DNA of 64,000 nucleotides from Escherichia phage vB_Eco_NR1. Position numbers and translations under genes: made by a program. The stretch is taken from the sequence record LR990704; one strand, given 5' to 3'. Positions 16,336-27,683 of this stretch are shown here, one piece after another. The notes below the pieces were generated by a model. It saw only the letters and a program-made list of their open reading frames with translations. It did not search any database and was not told where the DNA came from. Within the stretch, counting starts at the first letter, position 1; each line of letters opens with the position of its first letter.

Positions 16336-16343
16336 TATAAATA
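16336..16343 (+). promoter_or_regulatory. T4-type late promoter TATAAATA for gene 34
   Basis: exact TATAAATA 35 nt upstream of gene 34 ATG. Confidence 0.75.
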
Positions 16344-16377: not shown

Positions 16378-19300
16378 ATGGCCGAGATTAAAAGAAAGTT
16401 CAGAGCAGAAGACGGTCTGGACGCAGGTGGCGATAAAATAATCAACGTAGCTTTAGCTGATCGTACCGTAGGAACTGACGGTGTTAACGTTGATTACTTA
16501 ATTCAAGAAAACACAGTTCAACAATACGATCCAACTCGTGGATATTTAAAAGATTTTGTAATCATTTATGATAACCGCTTTTGGGCTGCTATAAATGATA
16601 TTCCAAAACCAGCAGGAGCTTTTAATAGCGGACGCTGGAGAGCATTACGTACCGATGCTAACTGGATTACGGTTTCATCTGGTTCATATCAATTAAAATC
16701 CGGTGAAGCTATTTCGGTTAACACTGCAGCTGGAAATGACATCACGTTTACTTTACCATCTACTCCAATTGATGGTGATACTATCGTTCTCCAAGATATT
16801 GGAGGAAAACCTGGAGTTAACCAAGTTTTAATTGTAGCTCCAGTGCAAAGTATTGTAAACTTCAGAGGTCAACAAGTACGTTCAGTACTAATGACTCATC
16901 CAAAATCGCAGATAGTTTTAATTTTTAGTAATCGTCTGTGGCAAATGTATGTTGCTGATTATAGTAGAGAAGCTGTAGTTGTAACACCAGCAAGTCTCTA
17001 TCAGGCGCAATCTAATGATTTTATCGTACGTAGATTTACTTCTGCTGCACCAATTAATGTTAAACTTCCAAGATTTGCTAATCATGGCGATATTATTAAT
17101 TTCGTTGATTTAGATAAACTGAATCCACTTTATCATACAATTGTTACTACATACGATGAAACGACTTCAGTACAAGAAGTTGGAACTCATTCCATTGAAG
17201 GCCGTACATCAATTGACGGTTTCTTGATGTTTGATGATAATGAGAAATTGTGGAGATTGTTTGACGGGGATAGTAAAGCACGTTTACGCATTATAACGAC
17301 TAATTCTAATATTCGTCCAAACGAAGAAGTCATGGTATTTGGTGCGAATAACGGAACAACTCAAACAATTGAGCTTCAGCTTCCAACTAATATTTCTGTT
17401 GGTGATACTGTTAAAATTTCCATGAATTACATGAGAAAAGGACAAACAGTTAAAATCAAAGCTGCGGGCGAAGATAAAATTGCTTCTTCAGTTCAATTAC
17501 TGCAATTCCCAAAACGCTCAGAATATCCACCTGAAGCTGAATGGGTTACAGTTCAAGAATTAGTTTTTAACGGTGAAACTAATTATGTTCCAGTTTTACA
17601 ACTTGCTTATATAGAAGATTCTGATGGAAAATACTGGGTTGTACAGCAAAACGTTCCAACTGTAGAAAGAGTTGATTCTTTAAATGATTCTACTAGAGCA
17701 AGATTAGGCGTAATTGCTTTAGCTACACAAGCTCAAGCTAATGCCGATTTAGAAAATTCTCCACAAAAAGAATTAGCAATTACTCCAGAAACATTAGCTA
17801 ACCGTACTGCTACTGAAACTCGCAGAGGTATTGCAAGAATAGCAACTACTGCTCAAGTGAATCAGAACACCACATTCTCTTTTGCAGATGACCTTATCAT
17901 TACTCCTAAAAAGCTGAATGAAAGAACTGCTACAGAAACTCGCAGAGGTGTTGCTGAAATTGCTACGCAGCAAGAAACTAATGCAGGAACCGATGATACT
18001 ACAATCATCACTCCTAAAAAGCTTCAAGCTCGCCAAGGTTCTGAATCATTATCTGGTATTGTAACTTTTGTATCTACTGCAGGTGCTACTCCAGCTTCTA
18101 GTCGTGAATTAAATGGTACGAATGTTTATAATAAAAACACTAATAATTTAGTTGTTTCACCTAAAGCTTTGGATCAGTATAAAGCTACTCCAACACAGCA
18201 AGGTGCAGTAATTTTAGCAGTTGAAAGTGAAGTAATTGCTGGACAAAGCCAAGAAGGATGGGCAAATGCGGTTGTAACGCCAGAAACGTTACATAAAAAG
18301 ACATCAACTGATGCAAGAATTGGTTTAATTGAAATTGCTACGCAAAGTGAAGTTAATACAGGAACTGATTATACTCGTGCAGTCACTCCTAAAACTTTAA
18401 ATGACCGTAGAGCAACTGAAAGTTTAAGTGGTATAGCTGAAATTGCTACACAAGTTGAATTCGACGCAGGCGTCGACGATACTCGTATCTCTACACCATT
18501 AAAAATTAAAACCAGATTTAATAGTACTGATCGTACTTCTGTTGTTGCTCTATCTGGATTAGTTGAATCAGGAACTCTCTGGGACCATTATACCCTTAAT
18601 ATTCTTGAAGCAAATGAGACACAGCGTGGTACACTTCGTGTAGCTACACAGGTCGAAGCTGCTGCAGGAACATTAGATAATGTTTTAATAACTCCTAAAA
18701 AGCTTTTAGGTACTAAATCTACCGAATCGCAAGAAGGTGTTATTAAAGTTGCAACTCAGTCTGAAACTGTGGCTGGAACGTCAGCAAATACTGCTGTATC
18801 TCCAAAAAATTTAAAATGGATTGCGCAGAGTGAACCTACCTGGGCAGCTACTACTGCGATAAGAGGTTTTGTTAAAACTTCATCTGGTTCAATTACATTC
18901 GTTGGTAATGATACAGTCGGTTCTACCCAAGATTTAGAACTGTATGAGAAAAATAGCTATGCAGTATCACCATATGAATTAAACCGTGTATTAGCAAATT
19001 ATTTGCCGTTAAAAGCAAAAGCTGCTGATACAAATTTATTGGATGGTCTAGATTCATCTCAGTTCATTCGTAGGGATATTGCACAGACAGTTAATGGTTC
19101 ACTAACCTTAACTCAACAAACGAATCTGAGTGCCCCTCTTGTATCATCTAGTACTGCTACGTTTGGCGGATCAGTTTCGGCAAACAGCACATTAACTATT
19201 TCTAATACTGGAACGGCAACTCGTCTGATTTTTGAGAAAGGACCTCAAACTGGAACTAACCCAGCGCAGACGATGACTATCAGAGTTTGGGGAAATCAGT

Positions 19301-20247
19301 TTGGTGGCGGTTCAGATACAATGCGTTCTACTGTATTTGAAGTTGGTGATGAAACGTCTAATCACTTTTATTCTCAACGCAATAAAGCTGGGAATATAAC
19401 GTTTAGTATCAATGGTACTGTAATGCCAATAAATGTTAATGCTTCGGGTTCTTTGAATGCGAACGGCGTTGCAACATTTGGTAGTTCAGTTACTGCTAAT
19501 GGTGAATTCATCAGCAAGTCTGCAAATGCTTTCAGAGCAATAAATGGCGACTATGGATTCTTTATTCGCAATGATGCTGCTAACACCTATTTTATGCTTA
19601 CTGCATCGGGTGATCAGACTGGCGGATTTAATGGATTACGTCCTTTAGCTATTAATAATGCATCTGGTCAAGTAACGATTGGTGAAAGCTTAATCATTGC
19701 CAAAGGTGCTACTATAAATTCAGGTGGTTTAACTGTTAACTCGAGAATTCGTTCTCAGGGCACTAAAACATCTGACTTATATACCCGTGCGCCAACGTCT
19801 GATACTGTAGGATTCTGGTCAATCGATATTAATGATTCAGCTACTTATAACCAGTTCCCAGGTTATTTTAAAATGGTTGAAAAAACTAATGAAGTGACTG
19901 GGCTTCCATACTTAGAACGTGGCGAAGAAGTTAAATCTCCTGGTACATTGACTCAGTTTGGTAACACACTTGATTCGCTTTACCAAGATTGGATTACTTA
20001 TCCAACGACTCCAGAAGCACGTACCACTCGCTGGACACGTACATGGCAGAAAACCAAAAACTCTTGGTCAAGTTTTGTTCAGGTATTTGACGGAGGTAAC
20101 CCTCCTCAGCCGTCTGATATCGGTGCTTTACCATCTGATAATGCTACAATGGGGAATCTTACTATTCGTGATTTCTTACGAATTGGTAATGTTCGCATTA
20201 TTCCTGACCCAGTGAATAAAACGGTTAAATTTGAATGGGTTGAATAA
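16378..20247 (+). CDS. 34: long tail fibre proximal subunit gp34
   Basis: 1289 aa (T4 gp34 1289 aa); repeated IATQ/ETRRG beta-helix motifs; TATAAATA late promoter 35 nt upstream. Confidence 0.97.
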   Translation: MAEIKRKFRAEDGLDAGGDKIINVALADRTVGTDGVNVDYLIQENTVQQYDPTRGYLKDFVIIYDNRFWAAINDIPKPAGAFNSGRWRALRTDANWITVSSGSYQLKSGEAISVNTAAGNDITFTLPSTPIDGDTIVLQDIGGKPGVNQVLIVAPVQSIVNFRGQQVRSVLMTHPKSQIVLIFSNRLWQMYVADYSREAVVVTPASLYQAQSNDFIVRRFTSAAPINVKLPRFANHGDIINFVDLDKLNPLYHTIVTTYDETTSVQEVGTHSIEGRTSIDGFLMFDDNEKLWRLFDGDSKARLRIITTNSNIRPNEEVMVFGANNGTTQTIELQLPTNISVGDTVKISMNYMRKGQTVKIKAAGEDKIASSVQLLQFPKRSEYPPEAEWVTVQELVFNGETNYVPVLQLAYIEDSDGKYWVVQQNVPTVERVDSLNDSTRARLGVIALATQAQANADLENSPQKELAITPETLANRTATETRRGIARIATTAQVNQNTTFSFADDLIITPKKLNERTATETRRGVAEIATQQETNAGTDDTTIITPKKLQARQGSESLSGIVTFVSTAGATPASSRELNGTNVYNKNTNNLVVSPKALDQYKATPTQQGAVILAVESEVIAGQSQEGWANAVVTPETLHKKTSTDARIGLIEIATQSEVNTGTDYTRAVTPKTLNDRRATESLSGIAEIATQVEFDAGVDDTRISTPLKIKTRFNSTDRTSVVALSGLVESGTLWDHYTLNILEANETQRGTLRVATQVEAAAGTLDNVLITPKKLLGTKSTESQEGVIKVATQSETVAGTSANTAVSPKNLKWIAQSEPTWAATTAIRGFVKTSSGSITFVGNDTVGSTQDLELYEKNSYAVSPYELNRVLANYLPLKAKAADTNLLDGLDSSQFIRRDIAQTVNGSLTLTQQTNLSAPLVSSSTATFGGSVSANSTLTISNTGTATRLIFEKGPQTGTNPAQTMTIRVWGNQFGGGSDTMRSTVFEVGDETSNHFYSQRNKAGNITFSINGTVMPINVNASGSLNANGVATFGSSVTANGEFISKSANAFRAINGDYGFFIRNDAANTYFMLTASGDQTGGFNGLRPLAINNASGQVTIGESLIIAKGATINSGGLTVNSRIRSQGTKTSDLYTRAPTSDTVGFWSIDINDSATYNQFPGYFKMVEKTNEVTGLPYLERGEEVKSPGTLTQFGNTLDSLYQDWITYPTTPEARTTRWTRTWQKTKNSWSSFVQVFDGGNPPQPSDIGALPSDNATMGNLTIRDFLRIGNVRIIPDPVNKTVKFEWVE

Positions 20248-20255
20248 GAGGTATT

Positions 20256-21371
20256 ATGGAAAAATTTATGGCAGAGTTTGGACAAGGATATGTCCAAACG
20301 CCATTTTTATCGGAAAGCAATTCAGTAAGATACAAAATAAGTATAGCGGGTTCTTGCCCGCTTTCTACTGCAGGACCATACGTTAAATTTCAGGATAATC
20401 CTGTAGGAAGTCAAACATTTAGCGCAGGACTTCATTTAAGAGTTTTTGACCCTTCCACCGGAGCATTAGTTGATAGTAAGTCATATGCTTTTTCGACTTC
20501 AAATGATACTACATCAGCTGCTTTTGTTAGCTTCATGAATTCTTTGACAAATAATAGAATTGTTGCTATATTAACTAACGGAAAGGTTAATTTTCCTCCT
20601 GAAGTAGTATCTTGGCTAAGAACTGCAGGAACGTCTGCTTTTCCATCTGATTCTATATTGTCAAGATTCGACGTATCATATGCTGCTTTTTATACTTCTT
20701 CTAAAAGAGCTATCGCATTAGAGCATGTTAAATTAAGTAATAGAAAAAGCACAGATGATTATCAAACTATTTTAGATGTTGTATTTGACAGTTTAGAAGA
20801 CGTTGGAGCTACCGGGTTTCCAAGAAGAACGTATGAAAGCGTTGAGCAATTCATGTCAGCGGTTGGTGGAACTAATAACGAAATTGCGCGATTGCCAACT
20901 TCAGCTGCTATAAGTAAATTATCTGATTATAATTTAATTCCTGGCGATGTTCTTTATCTTAAAGCTCAGTTATATGCTGATGCTGATTTACTTGCGCTTG
21001 GAACTACGAATATATCCATTCGATTTTATAATGCATCAAATGGATATATTTCCTCAACACAGGCTGAATTTACCGGGCAAGCTGGATCTTGGGAATTAAA
21101 GGAAGATTATGTAGTTGTTCCAGAAAACGCTGTAGGATTTACGATATATGCACAAAGAACTGCACAAGCTGGCCAAGGTGGCATGAGAAATTTAAGCTTT
21201 TCTGAAGTATCAAGAAACGGCGGCATTTCAAAACCTGCTGAATTTGGCGTCAATGGTATTCGTGTTAATTATATCTGTGAATCTGCTTCACCTCCGGATA
21301 TAATGGTACTTCCTACACAAGCATCGTCTAAAACTGGTAAAGTGTTTGGGCAAGAATTTAGAGAAGTATAA
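20256..21371 (+). CDS. 35: long tail fibre hinge (knee) protein gp35
   Basis: 371 aa; position and size as T4 gp35; SD AAGAGG. Confidence 0.93.
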   Translation: MEKFMAEFGQGYVQTPFLSESNSVRYKISIAGSCPLSTAGPYVKFQDNPVGSQTFSAGLHLRVFDPSTGALVDSKSYAFSTSNDTTSAAFVSFMNSLTNNRIVAILTNGKVNFPPEVVSWLRTAGTSAFPSDSILSRFDVSYAAFYTSSKRAIALEHVKLSNRKSTDDYQTILDVVFDSLEDVGATGFPRRTYESVEQFMSAVGGTNNEIARLPTSAAISKLSDYNLIPGDVLYLKAQLYADADLLALGTTNISIRFYNASNGYISSTQAEFTGQAGSWELKEDYVVVPENAVGFTIYAQRTAQAGQGGMRNLSFSEVSRNGGISKPAEFGVNGIRVNYICESASPPDIMVLPTQASSKTGKVFGQEFREV

Positions 21372-21400: not shown

Positions 21401-21403
21401 TTT

Positions 21404-21411
21404 ATAAATAC
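21404..21411 (+). promoter_or_regulatory. T4-type late promoter TATAAATA for gene 36
   Basis: exact TATAAATA 23 nt upstream of gene 36 ATG, just after the gene 35 terminator. Confidence 0.75.
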
Positions 21412-21433: not shown

Positions 21434-22096
21434 ATGGCTGATTTAAAAGTAGGTTCAACAACTGGAGGCTCTGTCATTTGGCATCAAGGAAATTTTCCAT
21501 TGAATCCAGCCGGTGACGATGTACTCTATAAATCATTTAAAATATATTCAGAATATAACAAACCACAAGCTGCAGATAACGATTTCGTTTCTAAAGCTAA
21601 TGGTGGTACTTACGCCGCGACTGTTCGATTTAATGGAGGCGTACATGTTCCTACTATAGGTAGTAGTCAACAGTGTGGTGTTTATCCAGGTAACGGTGAT
21701 GCAGCTACTTTTGCTATGGCAAATATTGACATCGTTTCGTGGAATGGTATTGGTTTTAAATCATCACAAGGTTCAGCAGACCGAACTGTTGTAATTAATG
21801 CACGTAATGGTGATATTAGTACAAAAGGCGTTGTGACAGCAGTAGGTCAAATAAGAAGTAATGCAGTTTCTCCTGTATCAGCAAATGACCTTACTAGAAA
21901 GGACTATGTTGATGGAGCAATAAATACTGTTACAGCAAATGCGAACTCTAGAGTGTTGCGTTCTGGCGACACTATGATAGGTAATTTAACCGCGCCAAAC
22001 TTTTTCTCACAGAATCCTGCATCTCAACCTTCACATGTTCCACGATTTGACCAAATCGTAATTAAGGATTCTGTTCAAGATTTCGGCTATTATTAA
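21434..22096 (+). CDS. 36: long tail fibre distal connector gp36
   Basis: 220 aa; own late promoter TATAAATA at 21404..21411; size and position as T4 gp36. Confidence 0.93.
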   Translation: MADLKVGSTTGGSVIWHQGNFPLNPAGDDVLYKSFKIYSEYNKPQAADNDFVSKANGGTYAATVRFNGGVHVPTIGSSQQCGVYPGNGDAATFAMANIDIVSWNGIGFKSSQGSADRTVVINARNGDISTKGVVTAVGQIRSNAVSPVSANDLTRKDYVDGAINTVTANANSRVLRSGDTMIGNLTAPNFFSQNPASQPSHVPRFDQIVIKDSVQDFGYY

Positions 22097-22104
22097 GAGG
22101 ACTT

Positions 22105-25100
22105 ATGGCTACTTTAAAACAAATACAATTTAAAAGAAGCAAAACCGCAGGTGCACGTCCTGCTGCTTCAGTATTAGCCGAAGGTGAATTGGCTATAAAC
22201 TTAAAAGATAGAACACTTTTTACTAAAGATGATTCAGGAAATATCATTGATTTAAGCATTTCCACTGGCGGTAATATCAGTGGAAATATCACTCAAACTG
22301 GAGATTATTTACAGAACGGTACATATAATCTCAATGGAAATCAGTTTGTTTATGCAGGAAAATATATTGAATTTTTACCTAAAACTGCAGGTAATGGCGC
22401 TTGGGCAAATCAACACCTAAATAAAGCCCCTATTTTTACAGATTTAAGTTCAACTACTTCTACTTCAGAATACCATCCGCTAATTAAACAGCGTTATAAA
22501 GATGGGACTTTTTCTGTTGGTACGCTAGTAAACGAAGGAAGTTTTAAAATTCATTATATCAATGAATCGGGAACTTCAAAATACTGGACATTTCGTAGAG
22601 ATGGTGGATTTGTTGTTGATACAGGAAGTTTGACAGTAACAGATGGAAATATTTCTGCTTCTGGTAATATTAATTCGGCTACTGGGGTAGTTTCTGCGCC
22701 ACGTGTCAACACAAAAAATATTAACATAAGCACGAAAACCTTTATCCCGAATAATGACGCGGGTTATGACATTGTTTCTTTACCTACCTGGGTTTATAAC
22801 CCACCGGCCGATGGTTCCGACAATACTACAAATGGATTGAACTATTTGCGTAAATTACGTGCATCAAGCGCATCAAGTATTTTCCATGAAATTGTTGATT
22901 GTCGAAAAGGTAAGCCGCAAGAAATTTCTTGGTGGACTGGTGTAGGACCTTCGTCTTTCCAGTGGGCGTTTGATACCTCTGGACGTATTACTGCAGGTAA
23001 ATCTATTTCTGTAGGTCTTCCTGATAGTGGTACAAATGGTCGTTATCCTTTAGATTCTGCAATTTCTATTGGTATTGCGATTGGCGATAACGATACCGGT
23101 ATTAAATGGGTCCGCGATGGCGTTTATGACCTGATGGCTAACGGTATTTCATCTGCTACCATTTTGAATAATGGTATTAATAGTACTAAAAAATTGATGG
23201 TTGGTTATAGTCGAGATTCCGGTTCTACTTGGGATTTCCCAAATAATAACCAAGCAATGTTTACTGCGCGTACCGATGTTGATGGTAATAATAACGGCGA
23301 TGGACAGACTCATATCGGATATAGCAGCAATGCTAAGATGTATCACTATTTCCGTGGTACAGGTCGTATGTCCGTTAGTATGGGTGATGGGCTTCTTGTT
23401 GAGCCTGGCATTTTAGATATTAAAACCGGTTCTAATAGCGTTGCTATTAGAGCAGACGGAACAATTAACTCCACCCAGCGTATTTCTATGCGTACGGGCT
23501 TGTTTTTAAATGGTGATGATAATACTAATGCTTTATCGTTTAAAGCTCCTTCCGGTGTAGATGGTACCAAAACCATTAACTGGGATGCAGGTACTCGTAA
23601 TGGTCAGAATAAAAATACCGTAACCATTAAAGCATGGGGTAATTCATTTAACGCTGAAAAGGGTAATAGAGAAACTGTATTCGAAGTTTCAGATTCACAA
23701 GGTTATTATTTCTACGCTCAACGTACTAATCCTGCGTCAGGTCAAACAGTAGGTCCGGTTAACTTTAAATTTAACGGAACTGTCGAAACAGGCCATATCA
23801 TAGGCCTTGGTAATATAAGTGCCTCCGGTACAGGTTCTTTTGGTGGCAATGTTACTATGTCTAACGGTTTGTTTGTCCAAGGTGGTTCTTCTATTACAGG
23901 CCAAGTAAAAATTGGTGGAACAGCTGACGCATTAAGAATTTGGAATGCTGAATACGGCGCAATTTTCCGTCGTTCTGAAAGTAACTTTTATATTATTCCA
24001 ACTCTTAAAGATGCTGGAGAATCAGGTGGTATAAGTAATCTTAGACCATTGATAATAGAACTGAACACCGGCACAGTTAAAATGTCGCATGATGTTCATT
24101 TAGGAGATTCTGGATCTGGTACAGGATTATTACAAGTAAGTAATAGTCTTAAAACTATTAAAATGATATGTCCAGTAACTATTAATGAACGTAATGCAGC
24201 GCTTACTCTAGATTCTCCTTCATCTTCTTCTGCTAATTATTTACAAGGTTCTAAAGCTGGAATTAGATCGTGGTATGTTGGTCTTGGTGGCGCTGGAAGT
24301 GATTTATCGCTTTATAGTCAATCATATGGACACGGTCTTGTTATAAGCGATAATTTCGTGTCAATCAGTAAACCTCTTAAAGTCGGAAATGCCCAACTAG
24401 GAACTGACGGTAATATTACCAACGGTTCTGGTAATTTTGCTAACTTAAACACCACGCTAAATCGTAAAGTTAATTCTGGATTTATTACTTATGGAGCAAC
24501 TGCTGGATGGTATAAGTTTGCAACAGTAACAATGCCACAATCCACTTCTACGGTCTTCTTTAAAATAGCCGGTGGTTCTGGATTTAATAGTGGATTATTC
24601 ACACAATGCAATATTGCTGAAATTGTTTTACGTACTAGTAATGAAAGACCTGCTGACTTAAATGCTGTATTATACACAAGAACAATTGCAGCTGCATTTA
24701 AAAATATTGCAGTTAATAACGTCTCTGGAGATACATATGACATTTATGTTTATGCCGGAACATATTGCAATCAATTAACTTGTGAATGGTCATGTACCGA
24801 AAATGCTACTGTTAGCGTTATTGGTATTAACTCATCTACCCAATCACCTGTGGATGCTCTTCCAGATACAGCAGTTGATGGGCAAGTTGCTAATGTTCTT
24901 AATAACTTGGTTGATCGCGGCAAAGTTAAGCGTTATGAAGCCGATTCTGAAATAGCTATTAATAACCAAACTGGTATTCGTATTAGAAGCAACAGCGATA
25001 AAACTGGTTCTGTTGCTACAATGCTACGAAATGATGGCAGTAGTTTTTATATTCTGTTTACAGATAAAAATGCCACCGATGGCGAAGCAACTGTTAACGG

Positions 25101-25905
25101 TGATTGGAATAGTAAGCGTCCTTTCGCAATTAACTTAACAACAGGCGAAGTATTAATGAATAACGGCATAGCTGTTCGCAGTGCTGCTTTATTCTATAAT
25201 AGCATAAATGTCAAAGATAATGGTTCTATTAACTTTGATAAGTCTGGTGCTAACCCAAGAAATATGAGAATATTTCATGCTGGCGATGCTTCTCGTGGTA
25301 ACCGTATTGAAATTGCCGATGAAACTAACTATATTGCTTACTTTGAAAAAGCTCCAGGTGGAGCTAACCGCTTTGTAGTAAATAATGCTACTGTAGCTGG
25401 TGTTAACCAAATGAATTCATTTGGTATTAATATCAATAACGCACTTGGTGGAAATAGTATAGCATTTGGTGATAGCGATACTGGTATTAAGCAAAATGGC
25501 GATGGATTATTAGACATATATGCGAACAGCGTACAAGTATTCCGTTTCCAAAACGGTGATTTGTACTCATATAAAAATATAAATGCTCCAAACGTTTATA
25601 TTCGTTCTGATATTCGCTTAAAATCTAATTTCAAACCTATCGAAAATGCACTTGATAAAGTTGAAAAACTCAATGGTGTCATTTATGATAAAGCTGAATA
25701 CATCGGTGGAGAGGCAATTGAAACTGAAGCGGGTATTGTAGCTCAAACGTTACAAGACGTTTTACCAGAAGCCGTCCGTGAAACAGAAGACAGCAAGGGT
25801 AATAAAATACTCACTGTTTCTTCTCAAGCCCAGATTGCTCTTCTGGTTGAAGCTGTGAAAACGCTTTCTTCTCGTGTAAAAGAACTTGAATCTAAACTTA
25901 TGTAA
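22105..25905 (+). CDS. 37: long tail fibre distal subunit gp37 (T2-type, with C-terminal intramolecular chaperone-like domain)
   Basis: 1266 aa; N-terminus MATLKQIQFKRSKTAGARPA as in T4 gp37; C-terminal about 100 aa carry an S74-like motif SDIRLKSNFKPIENALDKVEKLNGVIYD. Confidence 0.95.
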   Translation: MATLKQIQFKRSKTAGARPAASVLAEGELAINLKDRTLFTKDDSGNIIDLSISTGGNISGNITQTGDYLQNGTYNLNGNQFVYAGKYIEFLPKTAGNGAWANQHLNKAPIFTDLSSTTSTSEYHPLIKQRYKDGTFSVGTLVNEGSFKIHYINESGTSKYWTFRRDGGFVVDTGSLTVTDGNISASGNINSATGVVSAPRVNTKNINISTKTFIPNNDAGYDIVSLPTWVYNPPADGSDNTTNGLNYLRKLRASSASSIFHEIVDCRKGKPQEISWWTGVGPSSFQWAFDTSGRITAGKSISVGLPDSGTNGRYPLDSAISIGIAIGDNDTGIKWVRDGVYDLMANGISSATILNNGINSTKKLMVGYSRDSGSTWDFPNNNQAMFTARTDVDGNNNGDGQTHIGYSSNAKMYHYFRGTGRMSVSMGDGLLVEPGILDIKTGSNSVAIRADGTINSTQRISMRTGLFLNGDDNTNALSFKAPSGVDGTKTINWDAGTRNGQNKNTVTIKAWGNSFNAEKGNRETVFEVSDSQGYYFYAQRTNPASGQTVGPVNFKFNGTVETGHIIGLGNISASGTGSFGGNVTMSNGLFVQGGSSITGQVKIGGTADALRIWNAEYGAIFRRSESNFYIIPTLKDAGESGGISNLRPLIIELNTGTVKMSHDVHLGDSGSGTGLLQVSNSLKTIKMICPVTINERNAALTLDSPSSSSANYLQGSKAGIRSWYVGLGGAGSDLSLYSQSYGHGLVISDNFVSISKPLKVGNAQLGTDGNITNGSGNFANLNTTLNRKVNSGFITYGATAGWYKFATVTMPQSTSTVFFKIAGGSGFNSGLFTQCNIAEIVLRTSNERPADLNAVLYTRTIAAAFKNIAVNNVSGDTYDIYVYAGTYCNQLTCEWSCTENATVSVIGINSSTQSPVDALPDTAVDGQVANVLNNLVDRGKVKRYEADSEIAINNQTGIRIRSNSDKTGSVATMLRNDGSSFYILFTDKNATDGEATVNGDWNSKRPFAINLTTGEVLMNNGIAVRSAALFYNSINVKDNGSINFDKSGANPRNMRIFHAGDASRGNRIEIADETNYIAYFEKAPGGANRFVVNNATVAGVNQMNSFGININNALGGNSIAFGDSDTGIKQNGDGLLDIYANSVQVFRFQNGDLYSYKNINAPNVYIRSDIRLKSNFKPIENALDKVEKLNGVIYDKAEYIGGEAIETEAGIVAQTLQDVLPEAVRETEDSKGNKILTVSSQAQIALLVEAVKTLSSRVKELESKLM

Positions 25906-25908
25906 AAG

Positions 25909-25926
25909 AGGGCTTCGGCCCTCTAA
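25909..25926 (+). other. stable UUCG-tetraloop hairpin between genes 37 and 38
   Basis: AGAGGGC-TTCG-GCCCTCT; no following U-run, so likely RNA structure or stability element rather than strong terminator. Confidence 0.5.
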
Positions 25927-25935
25927 GGATTTTTA

Positions 25936-26721
25936 ATGGCAATTGTAGGTGTTCCTGGCTGGATTGGTGAATCTGCCGTGAATGAAACTGGACAGCGTTG
26001 GATGGATGCTGCGATGAGAGCAGTTCGTGTTTCAGTTCCTGGTTGGATGAGCTCAATGGCTGGGCAATCTAAAGAAGTATATTATAGCATTGGTGCTAGC
26101 AATTCTTACAATAAAGACACACTAATAAATTGGATAAAAGCCCAAGGAAGTACTCCTGTTGTTATTACTATTACAGGAAATATCGTTTCTTCATCGACAG
26201 GTCAACCATGCTTAGATTTTCCTAGCTCATTAACTAATGCATACGTGACACTTAATATCAATTCAGGCGTGCATGTTTGGGGTCGCGGCGGGAATGGTGG
26301 AAATAACTCTGCTGGCGGAGCAGGAGGAACTGCAATAAATAACGGAATTGGAACTAGATTACGTATTAATAACAATGGTGTTATCGCAGGTGGCGGTGGC
26401 GGCGGTGGCGGCGGATACTACTCTCCTTTTTCACAAATGAGATTGACTTTTGGCGGTGGAGGTGGTCGTCCATTTGGTGCTGCTGGTGGGTCTGCTAATA
26501 TGGAACAGGGTGCTACTGCTGGTACTATTTCTGCGCCCGGTAAAGGGTCTGTCAATGGTATCTATAATGGCGGGAATGGTGGTGATGCCGGTGCCGCAGG
26601 AGGTAAATGTAATATTCGCGGTCAAGGATCAGAATATAACGGCGGCGCTGCTGGTAAAGCTGTTACTGGTAATGCTCCAACTTGGACTAAAGTTGGCACA
26701 ATATATGGTTCAAGAGTATAA
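25936..26721 (+). CDS. 38: receptor-recognising adhesin gp38 (T2-type, glycine-rich motifs)
   Basis: 261 aa with multiple poly-Gly motifs (GGGGGGGGGYYSPF, FGGGGGRPFGAAGG, GGNGGDAGAAGG); T2/T6-type rather than T4-type (183 aa). Confidence 0.92.
   Translation: MAIVGVPGWIGESAVNETGQRWMDAAMRAVRVSVPGWMSSMAGQSKEVYYSIGASNSYNKDTLINWIKAQGSTPVVITITGNIVSSSTGQPCLDFPSSLTNAYVTLNINSGVHVWGRGGNGGNNSAGGAGGTAINNGIGTRLRINNNGVIAGGGGGGGGGYYSPFSQMRLTFGGGGGRPFGAAGGSANMEQGATAGTISAPGKGSVNGIYNGGNGGDAGAAGGKCNIRGQGSEYNGGAAGKAVTGNAPTWTKVGTIYGSRV
26389..26415 (+). repeat. GGY codon tract encoding nine consecutive glycines in gp38 (glycine-rich motif)
   Basis: ggtggcggtggcggcggtggcggcgga. Confidence 0.8.
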
Positions 26722-26753: not shown

Positions 26754-27410
26754 ATGGCAGCACCTAGAATATCATTTTCGCCCTCTGATATTCTATTTGG
26801 TGTTCTAGATCGCTTGTTCAAAGATAACGCTACCGGGAAAGTTCTTGCTTCCCGGGTAGCTGTCGTAATTCTTTTATTTATGATGGCGATTGTTTGGTAT
26901 AGGGGAGATAGTTTCTTTGAGTACTATAAGCAATCAAAGTATGAAACATACAGTGAAATTATTGAAAAGGAAAGAAATGCACGCTTTGAATCTGTCGCCC
27001 TGGAACAACTCCAGATAGTTCATATATCATCTGAGGCAGACTTTAGTGCGGTGTATTCTTTCCGCCCTAAAAACTTAAACTATTTTGTTGATATTATAGC
27101 ATACGAAGGAAGATTACCTTCAACAATAACTGAAAAATCACTTGGAGGATATCCTGTTGATAAAACTATGGATGAATATATAGTTCATTTAAATGGACGT
27201 CATTATTATTCTGACTCAAAATTTGCTTTTTTACCAACTAAAAAGCCTACTCCCGAAATAAACTACATGTACAGTTGTCCATATTTTAATTTGGATAATA
27301 TCTATGCTGGAACGATAACCATGTACTGGTATAGAAATGATCATATAAGTAATGACCGCCTTGAATCAATATGCGCTCAGGCGGCCAGAATATTAGGAAG
27401 GGCTAAATAA
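26754..27410 (+). CDS. t: holin T
   Basis: 218 aa; single TM segment near N-terminus, large periplasmic domain; matches recalled T4 holin; SD AAGGAGGG. Confidence 0.95.
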   Translation: MAAPRISFSPSDILFGVLDRLFKDNATGKVLASRVAVVILLFMMAIVWYRGDSFFEYYKQSKYETYSEIIEKERNARFESVALEQLQIVHISSEADFSAVYSFRPKNLNYFVDIIAYEGRLPSTITEKSLGGYPVDKTMDEYIVHLNGRHYYSDSKFAFLPTKKPTPEINYMYSCPYFNLDNIYAGTITMYWYRNDHISNDRLESICAQAARILGRAK

Positions 27411-27683
27411 TTATTTGTTCGTATACATCTCTAGATATCGATATACACCCTCAAAACCCTCGTTGAATTCGTCGATGAGGGTTTTCTTATCTTCTTGAGT
27501 TAATTCAGAAACAATTTTACGGAATGAATTCTGATTTAATTTTCTACCTTCATGCGTTACTCCAATCTCATTCAGAAATGCAATAAAATTAGCACGATTC
27601 TCAACAATATCTTCTCTGGAAAATTTAATCAAAATAGACGCAACAGTAATAATTTCACGAACTGTATCAATATTTTTATTCAT
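27411..27683 (-). CDS. asiA: anti-sigma-70 factor AsiA
   Basis: 90 aa; matches recalled T4 AsiA. Confidence 0.97.
   Translation of the reverse strand: MNKNIDTVREIITVASILIKFSREDIVENRANFIAFLNEIGVTHEGRKLNQNSFRKIVSELTQEDKKTLIDEFNEGFEGVYRYLEMYTNK

Follow-up and report, generated by a model that had tools for sequence, protein, structure and literature searches.

Predicted self-cleaving gp37 tip and chimeric gp38 adhesin in the long tail fibre of Escherichia phage vB_Eco_NR1

Gene content and expression signals of the locus

The stretch of DNA analysed here (hereafter the window; 64,000 nucleotides of Escherichia phage vB_Eco_NR1, sequence record LR990704) represents a Tequatrovirus (T-even) genome, and carries on its plus strand the gene order gp36-gp37-gp38-t, as in phage T2. 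gp37 (22105..25905) encodes a 1266-aa precursor, which is annotated in related phages as the long tail fibre distal subunit, and matches the Pfam families PF20744 (gp37_trimer) and PF21446, both trimerisation domains of the fibre, as well as PF13884. gp38 (25936..26721, stop codon included) starts 30 nt past the gp37 stop codon and encodes 261 aa. Both open reading frames and their sequences agreed between the ORF list and the original prediction. We are highly confident that the locus encodes the module for the distal tip of the long tail fibre in a T-even phage of the T2 type. The biology of a self-cleaving gp37 tip and a gp38 adhesin is already known, and the system is an ordinary, well-studied one of the T2 type; what is added here is a predicted cleavage site between R1167 and S1168 and a chimeric gp38 with Tsx as its predicted receptor. 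The discovery value is accordingly small, and the module proved to be correctly annotatable from sequence alone.

The best whole-locus matches in the phage collection, namely JLBYU22, teqhal and FriedrichMiescher, were 95-97% identical, no record in the collection matched the locus over its full length, and only eight records covered at least 80% of gp37. Thus, the window belongs to a known lineage and represents a new isolate of mosaic make-up. Its mosaic status leaves the interpretation of the tip module unchanged.

A T4-type late promoter motif, TATAAATA, lies 31 nt ahead of the gp36 ATG (21403..21410, plus strand), and it likely starts the gp36-gp37-gp38-t late transcript. This motif was assigned by its position, as the count of TATAAATA across the whole window was not above chance, and no further copy was found from there to the holin gene. 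We also sought a separate promoter for gp38; no late-promoter motif was detected between gp36 and t, and sigma-70-like matches occurred at chance level. Folding of the gp37-gp38 intercistronic region gave a hairpin, AGAGGGC-UUCG-GCCCUCU, with a 7-bp stem and a UUCG tetraloop (25907..25924, plus strand; -13.4 kcal/mol, z -2.0), after which comes an AAGGA ribosome-binding site ahead of gp38.

The chaperone domain of gp37 and its predicted cleavage

The original prediction held that the last residues of gp37 resemble the Peptidase_S74 type of intramolecular chaperone domain, and this resemblance was borne out by the Pfam search. PF13884 matched aa 1168-1225 with an E value of 1.8e-15 and 57.4 bits, against a curated cut-off of 22 bits, over the entire profile (1-58 of 58), and the match begins exactly at Ser1168. 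The resemblance, as scored by the profile, is therefore far above chance. The domain consists of the peptide SDIRLKSNFKPIENALDKVEKLNGVIYD...KELESKLM, 99 residues long from aa 1168 (nt 25606) to the C-terminus (aa 1168-1266; 25606..25902, plus strand), so that the extreme C-terminus of gp37, the last 99 of 1266 residues, is the site of the S74 domain. The start given originally, 25600, lies two codons upstream of aa 1168.

The residues predicted to form a catalytic Ser-Lys dyad are intact. Ser1168 (25606..25608, plus strand), the putative nucleophile, and Lys1173 (25621..25623, plus strand), the putative general base five residues past it, are aligned with S587 and K592 of MyRF, respectively. 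S587 is the residue mutated to A in the MyRF structure 7DC3, and the pair S587/K592 has been equated with S911/K916 of endoNF (PMC8326128). Among 34 homologues, which share 35-85% identity with the window fragment, the Ser, Asp and Lys of the SDxxxK motif as well as the GxxAQ and LPEA motifs were invariant.

Sequence matches in the PDB comprised S16 gp37 (6F45_A, E 1.7e-11) and the ICA domain of MyRF (7DC3, E 8e-4), and the search with the chaperone domain alone retrieved neither endoNF nor T5 pb1; the link to endoNF was seen only by fold search. In the AlphaFold model of the gp37 C-terminal fragment (mean pLDDT 81.8), pLDDT exceeded 90 across the chaperone domain, the domain, trimeric in its working form, being modelled as a monomer. 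The top Foldseek matches of this model in the PDB were the MyRF ICA domain (7DC3, E 3e-6, TM 0.62), the endoNF chaperone (3GW6, E 1e-3) and the GA-1 chaperone (3GUD), the 3GW6 matches having a poor rmsd of ~18 A over ~230 columns and a probability of at least 0.98. The model also contains a long C-terminal helix (aa 1240-1265, corresponding to fragment residues 141-166; 25822..25899, plus strand; pLDDT >90), which would be expected to form a trimeric coiled coil, as the equivalent helix drives trimerisation (PMC8326128). On the combined grounds of profile, putative catalytic residues and predicted fold, we assign the gp37 C-terminus as a Peptidase_S74 intramolecular chaperone domain.

Since the domain is assigned on these three grounds, autoproteolytic release of the gp37 C-terminus would be the expected outcome in NR1, as originally proposed. 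The predicted scissile bond is R1167-S1168, in the site NVYIR^SDIRLK, with which the cleavage site of S16 (DLNVS^SDRRIKK; PMC7917993) aligns. Over its last 166 residues, gp37 is almost the same as phage T2 gp37 (82% over aa 1101-1150, 100% over aa 1151-1250 and 94% over aa 1251-1266), and a single residue separates the two chaperone domains. According to Trojet 2011, citing Drexler 1986, gp37 of T2 and T6 undergoes C-terminal proteolytic cleavage, after which gp38 caps it (PMC3157838), the C-terminal processing of T2 gp37 having been reported in 1986 by Drexler, Riede and Henning. The mechanism was established with the S16 structure (Dunne et al. 2018), in which the chaperone assists trimerisation, self-cleavage follows, and gp38 docks last (PMC7917993). 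NVYIR (aa 1163-1167; 25591..25605, plus strand) is predicted to be both the C-terminus and the last beta-strand of mature gp37, and hence the tip on which gp38 docks. Its counterparts in the alignment are DLNVS in S16 gp37 and DVYIR in the fPS phages (PMC7917993), and VYIR is invariant across T2, T6, Bas39 and Solly.

The gp38 adhesin and its predicted receptor

gp38 matched the adhesin family PF05268 (E 2e-71) on aa 47-261 over the full profile (1-218 of 218) and PF21721 (Gp38_N, E 8e-18) on aa 1-42. It could be aligned end to end with S16 gp38 (6F45_D, E 4.6e-49), and also matched the receptor-binding domain of PP01 gp38 (9V85, E 2.4e-32). From these matches, gp38 is a T2/S16-type adhesin, which would be expected, from the S16 structure 6F45 and the genetics of T2, T6 and PP01, to sit at the fibre tip and bind the receptor.

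The N-terminal attachment domain (aa 1-42; 25936..26061, plus strand) contains Trp9, Trp22 and Trp37, and such tryptophans have been described as prongs plugging into the gp37 tip (PMC7917993). Of 113 aligned gp38 homologues, 106 had W9, 105 had W22 and 65 had W37 (Tyr in 28), and none of the three varies between the window, Bas39, Solly, T6 and T2. Glycine accounts for 23% of gp38, with runs at G152-G160 and G173-G177. The glycine-rich receptor-binding region (aa 116-243; 26281..26664, plus strand) was delimited with the entropy profile and the S16 gp38 alignment, and comprises five glycine-rich motifs (GRM1 to GRM5: aa 116-122, 152-160, 173-181, 212-216 and 236-243) alternating with four hypervariable segments (HVS1 to HVS4: aa 123-151, 161-172, 182-211 and 217-235), whose boundaries were drawn by eye on the Trojet scheme. 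The mean column entropy in the 113-sequence alignment was 0.29-0.69 bits for the GRMs versus 1.74-2.68 bits for HVS2-4, while HVS1 was just moderately variable (0.94 bits). This alternation of conserved and variable parts, together with the PF05268 and S16 matches, upholds the T2-type architecture that had been proposed for gp38.

We propose the following course of assembly. gp37 would be synthesised as a 1266-aa precursor, of which S1168-M1266 acts as the chaperone. This domain would trimerise via the helix at its end, and the trimeric shaft of gp37, nucleated by it, would fold from the C-terminal side. After folding of the trimer, the dyad of Ser1168 and Lys1173 would cut the R1167-S1168 bond, and departure of the chaperone would expose NVYIR as the tip. 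One gp38 molecule may then dock there with its N-terminal domain, via the conserved Trp9, Trp22 and Trp37, and gp38 would present its hypervariable loops to an outer-membrane protein on a glycine-rich scaffold, which in S16 gp38 is a polyglycine-II sandwich.

Two other views of the tip have to be weighed against this scheme. The S74-like domain could be a degenerate relic that is not cleaved and stays on the fibre tip, given that cleavage in NR1 is deduced from relatives. We consider this very improbable, as every invariant position of the family, the Ser-Lys dyad included, is intact, the domain is one residue away from that of T2, whose gp37 is processed (PMC3157838), and an uncleaved domain would block the surface where gp38 docks in S16 (PMC7917993). 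Alternatively, gp38 could be an assembly chaperone of the T4 type that helps gp37 to fold and is absent from the virion, in which case gp37 would bind the receptor on its own; several GenBank records indeed name the orthologue 'distal long tail fiber assembly catalyst'. Nevertheless, the GP38 adhesin and Gp38_N families were the only Pfam families found for gp38 at E <= 0.01, with no tail-fibre assembly family among them, and the adhesin that gp38 matches throughout (6F45_D) was crystallised bound to the gp37 tip of S16. In addition, gp37 has its own intramolecular chaperone, and is without the T4-type C-terminal receptor-binding extension, needle or tip domain. The adhesin family matches and the S74 ending of gp37 led us to reject the T4-type identity, to which we give almost no credence. 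The GenBank name has been carried over in annotation, and we flag the widespread mislabelling of adhesin-type gp38 as 'assembly catalyst'.

Returning to gp38 as an adhesin, the identity comparison divides the protein in two. The block from HVS2 to HVS4 (aa 161-235; 26416..26640, plus strand) is of the T6-like (Tsx) type, being 82.7% identical to T6, 28.0% to T2 and 98.7% to Bas39, and the second half as a whole (aa 116-261) is 79.5% identical to T6, while aa 1-115 are 76.5% identical to T2. By this comparison, gp38 is a natural chimera, T2-like in its attachment half and T6-like in its hypervariable segments. The chimera illustrates a known point of modular exchange near gp38 residue 113-115, a junction also used for engineered adhesins (PMC12892980). 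The whole protein is 99% identical to gp38 of both Bas39 and Solly; three substitutions distinguish it from the Bas39 protein (S86Q, Q90V and R169K), one of which lies in an HVS, where the window has the T6 residue. The primary receptor of Bas39 has been typed experimentally as Tsx (BASEL S5 Table), Tsx-type adhesins have one common set of HVSs (PMC3157838), and the receptor is predictable from gp38 phylogeny (PMC12032242). Given this 99% identity to the protein of the Tsx-requiring Bas39, the receptor predicted for gp38 is the nucleoside channel Tsx, for which it is almost certainly specific. The alignment of variable segments suggested in the original prediction, run with T2 and T6, gave the same answer, i.e., T6-like and hence Tsx. 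That gp38 sets the primary receptor agrees with the literature (PMC3157838, PMC12032242). Nevertheless, calling it 'the host-range determinant' was slightly overstated, since short tail fibres, LPS and host immunity also play a part in host range.

A receptor other than Tsx (FadL/OmpF as in T2, or OmpA as in K3, Ox2 and M1), or a second one beside Tsx, appears unlikely but deserves discussion. The homologues include, at 52% identity, M1 gp38 (P0108), an adhesin of the OmpA type. The N-terminal half of the NR1 protein is T2-like, as described above, and a few changes in the HVSs can alter or broaden specificity; PST, which is a few residues off T6, also uses OmpA (PMC3157838). Against this, specificity sits in the hypervariable segments, which are T6-like rather than T2-like, and the Tsx-dependent Bas39 has practically the same gp38. 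Moreover, an engineered gp38 that joined aa 1-113 of T2 to the receptor-binding domain of PP01 gave OmpC-dependent infection (PMC12892980); OmpC being the receptor of PP01, the choice of receptor does not lie with the N-terminal half. A chimeric gp38 with few substitutions may have a secondary receptor besides Tsx, as in PST. It is most unlikely that the released 99-residue chaperone fragment has a second role after cleavage, or that there is an extra receptor besides Tsx, and nothing points to either. Tsx stays the preferred primary receptor, and together with R1167 as the end of mature gp37 and gp38 as the tip adhesin, it makes up a usable prediction for the phage. If the prediction is true, hosts deficient in tsx, e.g., E. 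coli B REL606, would be expected to resist the phage.

Comparison with known fibre tips

Phage T2 shares with NR1 the gene order, a near-identical gp37 C-terminus and the subtype of the gp38 N-terminal half. It differs in its receptor, which is FadL/OmpF as opposed to the Tsx predicted here, with HVS2-4 just 28% identical, and in the length of gp37 (1341 aa in T2 versus 1266 aa), the shaft being mosaic and shorter in NR1. Escherichia phage FriedrichMiescher (BASEL Bas39, MZ501066), a Tsx-dependent Tequatrovirus, is 96-100% identical over gp37 aa ~600-1266, and its flanking genes are ~95-97% identical at the DNA level, whereas aa 50-600 of gp37 are only 34-76% identical, so that an exchange of the proximal shaft has taken place.

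The Tsx adhesin of phage T6 is equal in length (261 aa), and its HVS2-4 resemble those found here. However, its half for N-terminal attachment with the beta-helix is only 46% identical, and the gp37 C-terminus with the chaperone domain is of a different subtype in T6 (44-46% identical over aa 1151-1250). A gp37 C-terminus of the T2 subtype is paired in NR1 with a gp38 N-terminus of the T2 subtype, and this pairing fits the lock-and-key scheme for the two subtypes (Trojet 2011, PMC3157838).

Salmonella phage S16 (PDB 6F45) shares its architecture with NR1: in S16, the chaperone is cut just before the Ser of SDxxxK, and gp38, a monomer, consists of an attachment domain and glycine-rich loops. 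S16 binds Salmonella OmpC and its hypervariable segments differ; the residue preceding the cleavage site is Ser, as opposed to Arg here, and the chaperone domain is reported to have 113 residues versus 99. Finally, endoNF (3GW6), GA-1 gp12 (3GUD), T5 pb1 and MyRF (7DC3) have in common with gp37 the dyad spacing, the fold and the C-terminal helix, and place the chaperone domain after a trimeric beta-structured fibre, as in NR1. In contrast to these systems, the cleaved end of gp37 would serve as the docking site for a separate adhesin, and not merely as the end of an enzymatic tailspike.

The fibre locus and its transcription

The window belongs to the genome of a T-even phage (Tequatrovirus), and its long-tail-fibre genes lie on the plus strand in the T4/T2 order: gp34 (16378-20247), gp35 (20256-21371), gp36 (21434-22096), gp37 (22105-25905, 1266 aa) and gp38 (25936-26721, 261 aa), followed by holin t (26754-27410, plus strand), beyond which asiA and other early genes occupy the minus strand. 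The flanking DNA shares 95-97% identity with the Escherichia phages teqhal, teqdroes, vB_EcoM-101117BS1 and FriedrichMiescher, and no end-to-end match to the fibre locus was found among the phage records searched. In the hinge protein gp35, amino acids 58-127 matched ILEI (PF15711, the interleukin-like EMT inducer / FAM3 fold; E 6e-9, 36.7 bits, Pfam cut-off 27).

The T4 late-promoter motif TATAAATA occurs at 16336-16343 and 21403-21410, 42 and 31 nt before the ATG of gp34 and gp36, respectively. Its presence before gp36 and absence between gp36 and holin t suggest that gp36-37-38-t constitute a late operon, the five copies in the whole window being not above chance. After the stop codon of gp37 and before the ribosome-binding site of gp38 lies a hairpin (AGAGGGC-TTCG-GCCCTCT, 25907-25924), its G+C-rich stem 7 bp long and its loop a UUCG tetraloop (free energy -13.4 kcal/mol, z -2.0); it is similar to the stable C(UUCG)G hairpins found between cistrons in T4. 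Directly downstream of the plus-strand holin gene, within the 3' part of the minus-strand asiA ORF, we also noticed an inverted repeat, AAAACCCTCGTTGA-ATTCG-TCGATGAGGGTTTT (27453-27485), with a 14-bp stem and a subsequent T-rich tail, which may be the terminator of the late fibre/holin transcript.

The C-terminal domain of gp37

The original prediction of an S74-type end on gp37 was borne out by Pfam: PF13884 matched amino acids 1168-1225, and all 58 positions of the profile were covered (E 1.8e-15, 57.4 bits, cut-off 22 bits). The coordinates of the prediction also proved correct: Ser1168 (nt 25606) is the first residue of the quoted peptide, which comprises the last 99 residues of gp37. The region aligned with the crystallised gp37 fragment of Salmonella phage S16 (6F45_A, E 1.7e-11) and with the MyRF ICA domain (7DC3, E 8e-4), in which K592 stands opposite Lys1173, and S587, replaced by alanine in the crystallised protein, opposite Ser1168. 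Both MyRF residues are indispensable for self-cleavage, which occurs N-terminal to the serine, and correspond to S911/K916 of the endosialidase endoNF (PMC8326128). The S, D and K of SDxxxK, G-x-x-A-Q and L-P-E-A were invariant in 34/34 aligned S74-containing homologues (35-85% identity to the window fragment). An AlphaFold2 model of amino acids 1100-1266 built from this alignment had pLDDT >90 throughout the domain; its top PDB fold matches were the MyRF ICA (E 3e-6, TM 0.62) and the endoNF (3GW6, E ~1e-3) and GA-1 (3GUD) chaperones; S16 gp37 matched strands upstream of the domain. All family-defining features testable in silico are present, and by sequence and model the gp37 C-terminus is a Peptidase_S74 intramolecular chaperone.

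According to PMC7917993, the S16 chaperone is cut between both serines (DLNVS^SDRRIKK), and a cut at DVYIR^SDGRLK was predicted for related Yersinia phages. From the alignment with S16 gp37, the predicted scissile bond here is R1167|S1168 (NVYIR^SDIRLK); cleavage would free a 99-residue fragment and leave a mature gp37 of 1167 residues. Amino acids 1151-1250 are 100%, and 1251-1266 94%, identical to those of T2 gp37, the chaperone domains differing by one residue. That T2 gp37 is processed at its C-terminus is stated by Trojet et al. 2011 with reference to Drexler et al. 1986. Owing to this near-identity and the T2/S16 precedent, self-cleavage in vB_Eco_NR1 can very safely be inferred.

By sequence identity, gp37 is a mosaic: amino acids ~600-1266, its distal half, share 96-100% identity with Bas39 (BASEL phage FriedrichMiescher, MZ501066), whereas for amino acids 50-600 the identity with Bas39, T2 or Solly is only 34-76%. 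At the megablast level, coverage of the gene reached 80% or more in only 8 phage records. In the interior of gp37, at amino acids 517-651 (~23653-24057) and 700-819 (~24203-24561), there are matches to C-terminal structures of the T7 fibre gp17 (4A0T and 4A0U, E 3e-5) and to PF20744, as well as a PF21446 Gp34_trimer-like segment, all of which represent domain sharing among fibre proteins. Directly upstream of the predicted cleavage site, amino acids 1100-1150 (~25402-25560, GGNSIAFGDSDTGIKQNGDG) share ~70% identity with many 'phage tail protein' entries from E. coli, Salmonella and Shigella prophages; these entries lack the S74 domain, and a few are mislabelled 'shikimate transporter' in NCBI.

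The gp38 adhesin and its predicted receptor

T4 gp38 is a chaperone, and many GenBank records, including teqhal, RB18, T6 (MH550421) and JSE, label an adhesin-type gp38 'distal long tail fiber assembly catalyst'. We rejected a T4-type assembly chaperone for the window gp38, as no such family matched it in Pfam; the label is a T4 name transferred to a different kind of protein. The protein instead matched PF05268 (E 2e-71) and PF21721 Gp38_N (E 8e-18), and its alignments with S16 gp38 (6F45_D, E 4.6e-49) and the receptor-binding domain of PP01 gp38 (9V85, E 2.4e-32) spanned the entire protein. Glycine makes up 23% of its residues, with runs of G9 and G5. Across 113 homologues, the glycine-rich motifs (GRMs) were conserved (mean entropy 0.29-0.69 bits), the hypervariable segments HVS2, HVS3 and HVS4 highly variable (2.68, 1.89 and 1.74 bits) and HVS1 moderately so (0.94 bits). 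W9, W22 and W37 are present, N-terminal tryptophans reported as plugging into the gp37 tip. The expected T2-type protein with glycine motifs flanking variable segments is thus upheld, and gp38 is an adhesin of the T2/S16 type. One homologue cluster was labelled Bacillus cereus, probably reflecting contamination.

Residues 1-115 share 76.5% identity with T2 and 46.1% with T6. Aligned with T2 and T6, two of the adhesins proposed beforehand for comparison, HVS2-HVS4 (aa 161-235) proved T6-like (82.7% identity to T6, 28.0% to T2). Judged by these identities, gp38 is a natural chimera, the junction of which coincides with the 113-residue boundary used for building functional chimeric adhesins (PMC12892980). 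The T2-subtype gp37 tip is paired with a T2-subtype gp38 attachment half; matching subtypes are required by the lock-and-key rule (Trojet 2011).

Tsx is very likely the receptor, because Bas39 gp38 is 99% identical (three substitutions) and the primary receptor of that phage was determined as Tsx (S5 Table, PMC8594841), Tsx-type adhesins have one HVS set in common (Trojet 2011) and receptors are predictable from gp38 phylogeny (PMC12032242), with the caveat that a second receptor can be acquired through a few changes in the HVSs, as in PST (Trojet 2011). The sole HVS substitution relative to Bas39 is R169K, at which the window has the T6 residue.

The tip module in comparison with known systems

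Judging from motif position, gp36-gp37-gp38-t are probably co-transcribed from the late-promoter motif at 21403. By analogy with its family, the trimerising S74 domain would nucleate gp37 folding from the C-terminus; the Ser1168/Lys1173 dyad, at positions common to endoNF and MyRF, would then cut the chain and the chaperone depart. The exposed tip would receive one gp38, as in 6F45, and the HVS loops would bind Tsx, as Bas39 and T6 suggest. The annotation of gp37 and gp38 is correct, and the biology is known in each of its elements: the processing in T2 was described in 1986, the GRM/HVS architecture between 1987 and 2011 and the structure from S16 in 2018, and an adhesin with 99% identity had its receptor typed in 2021.
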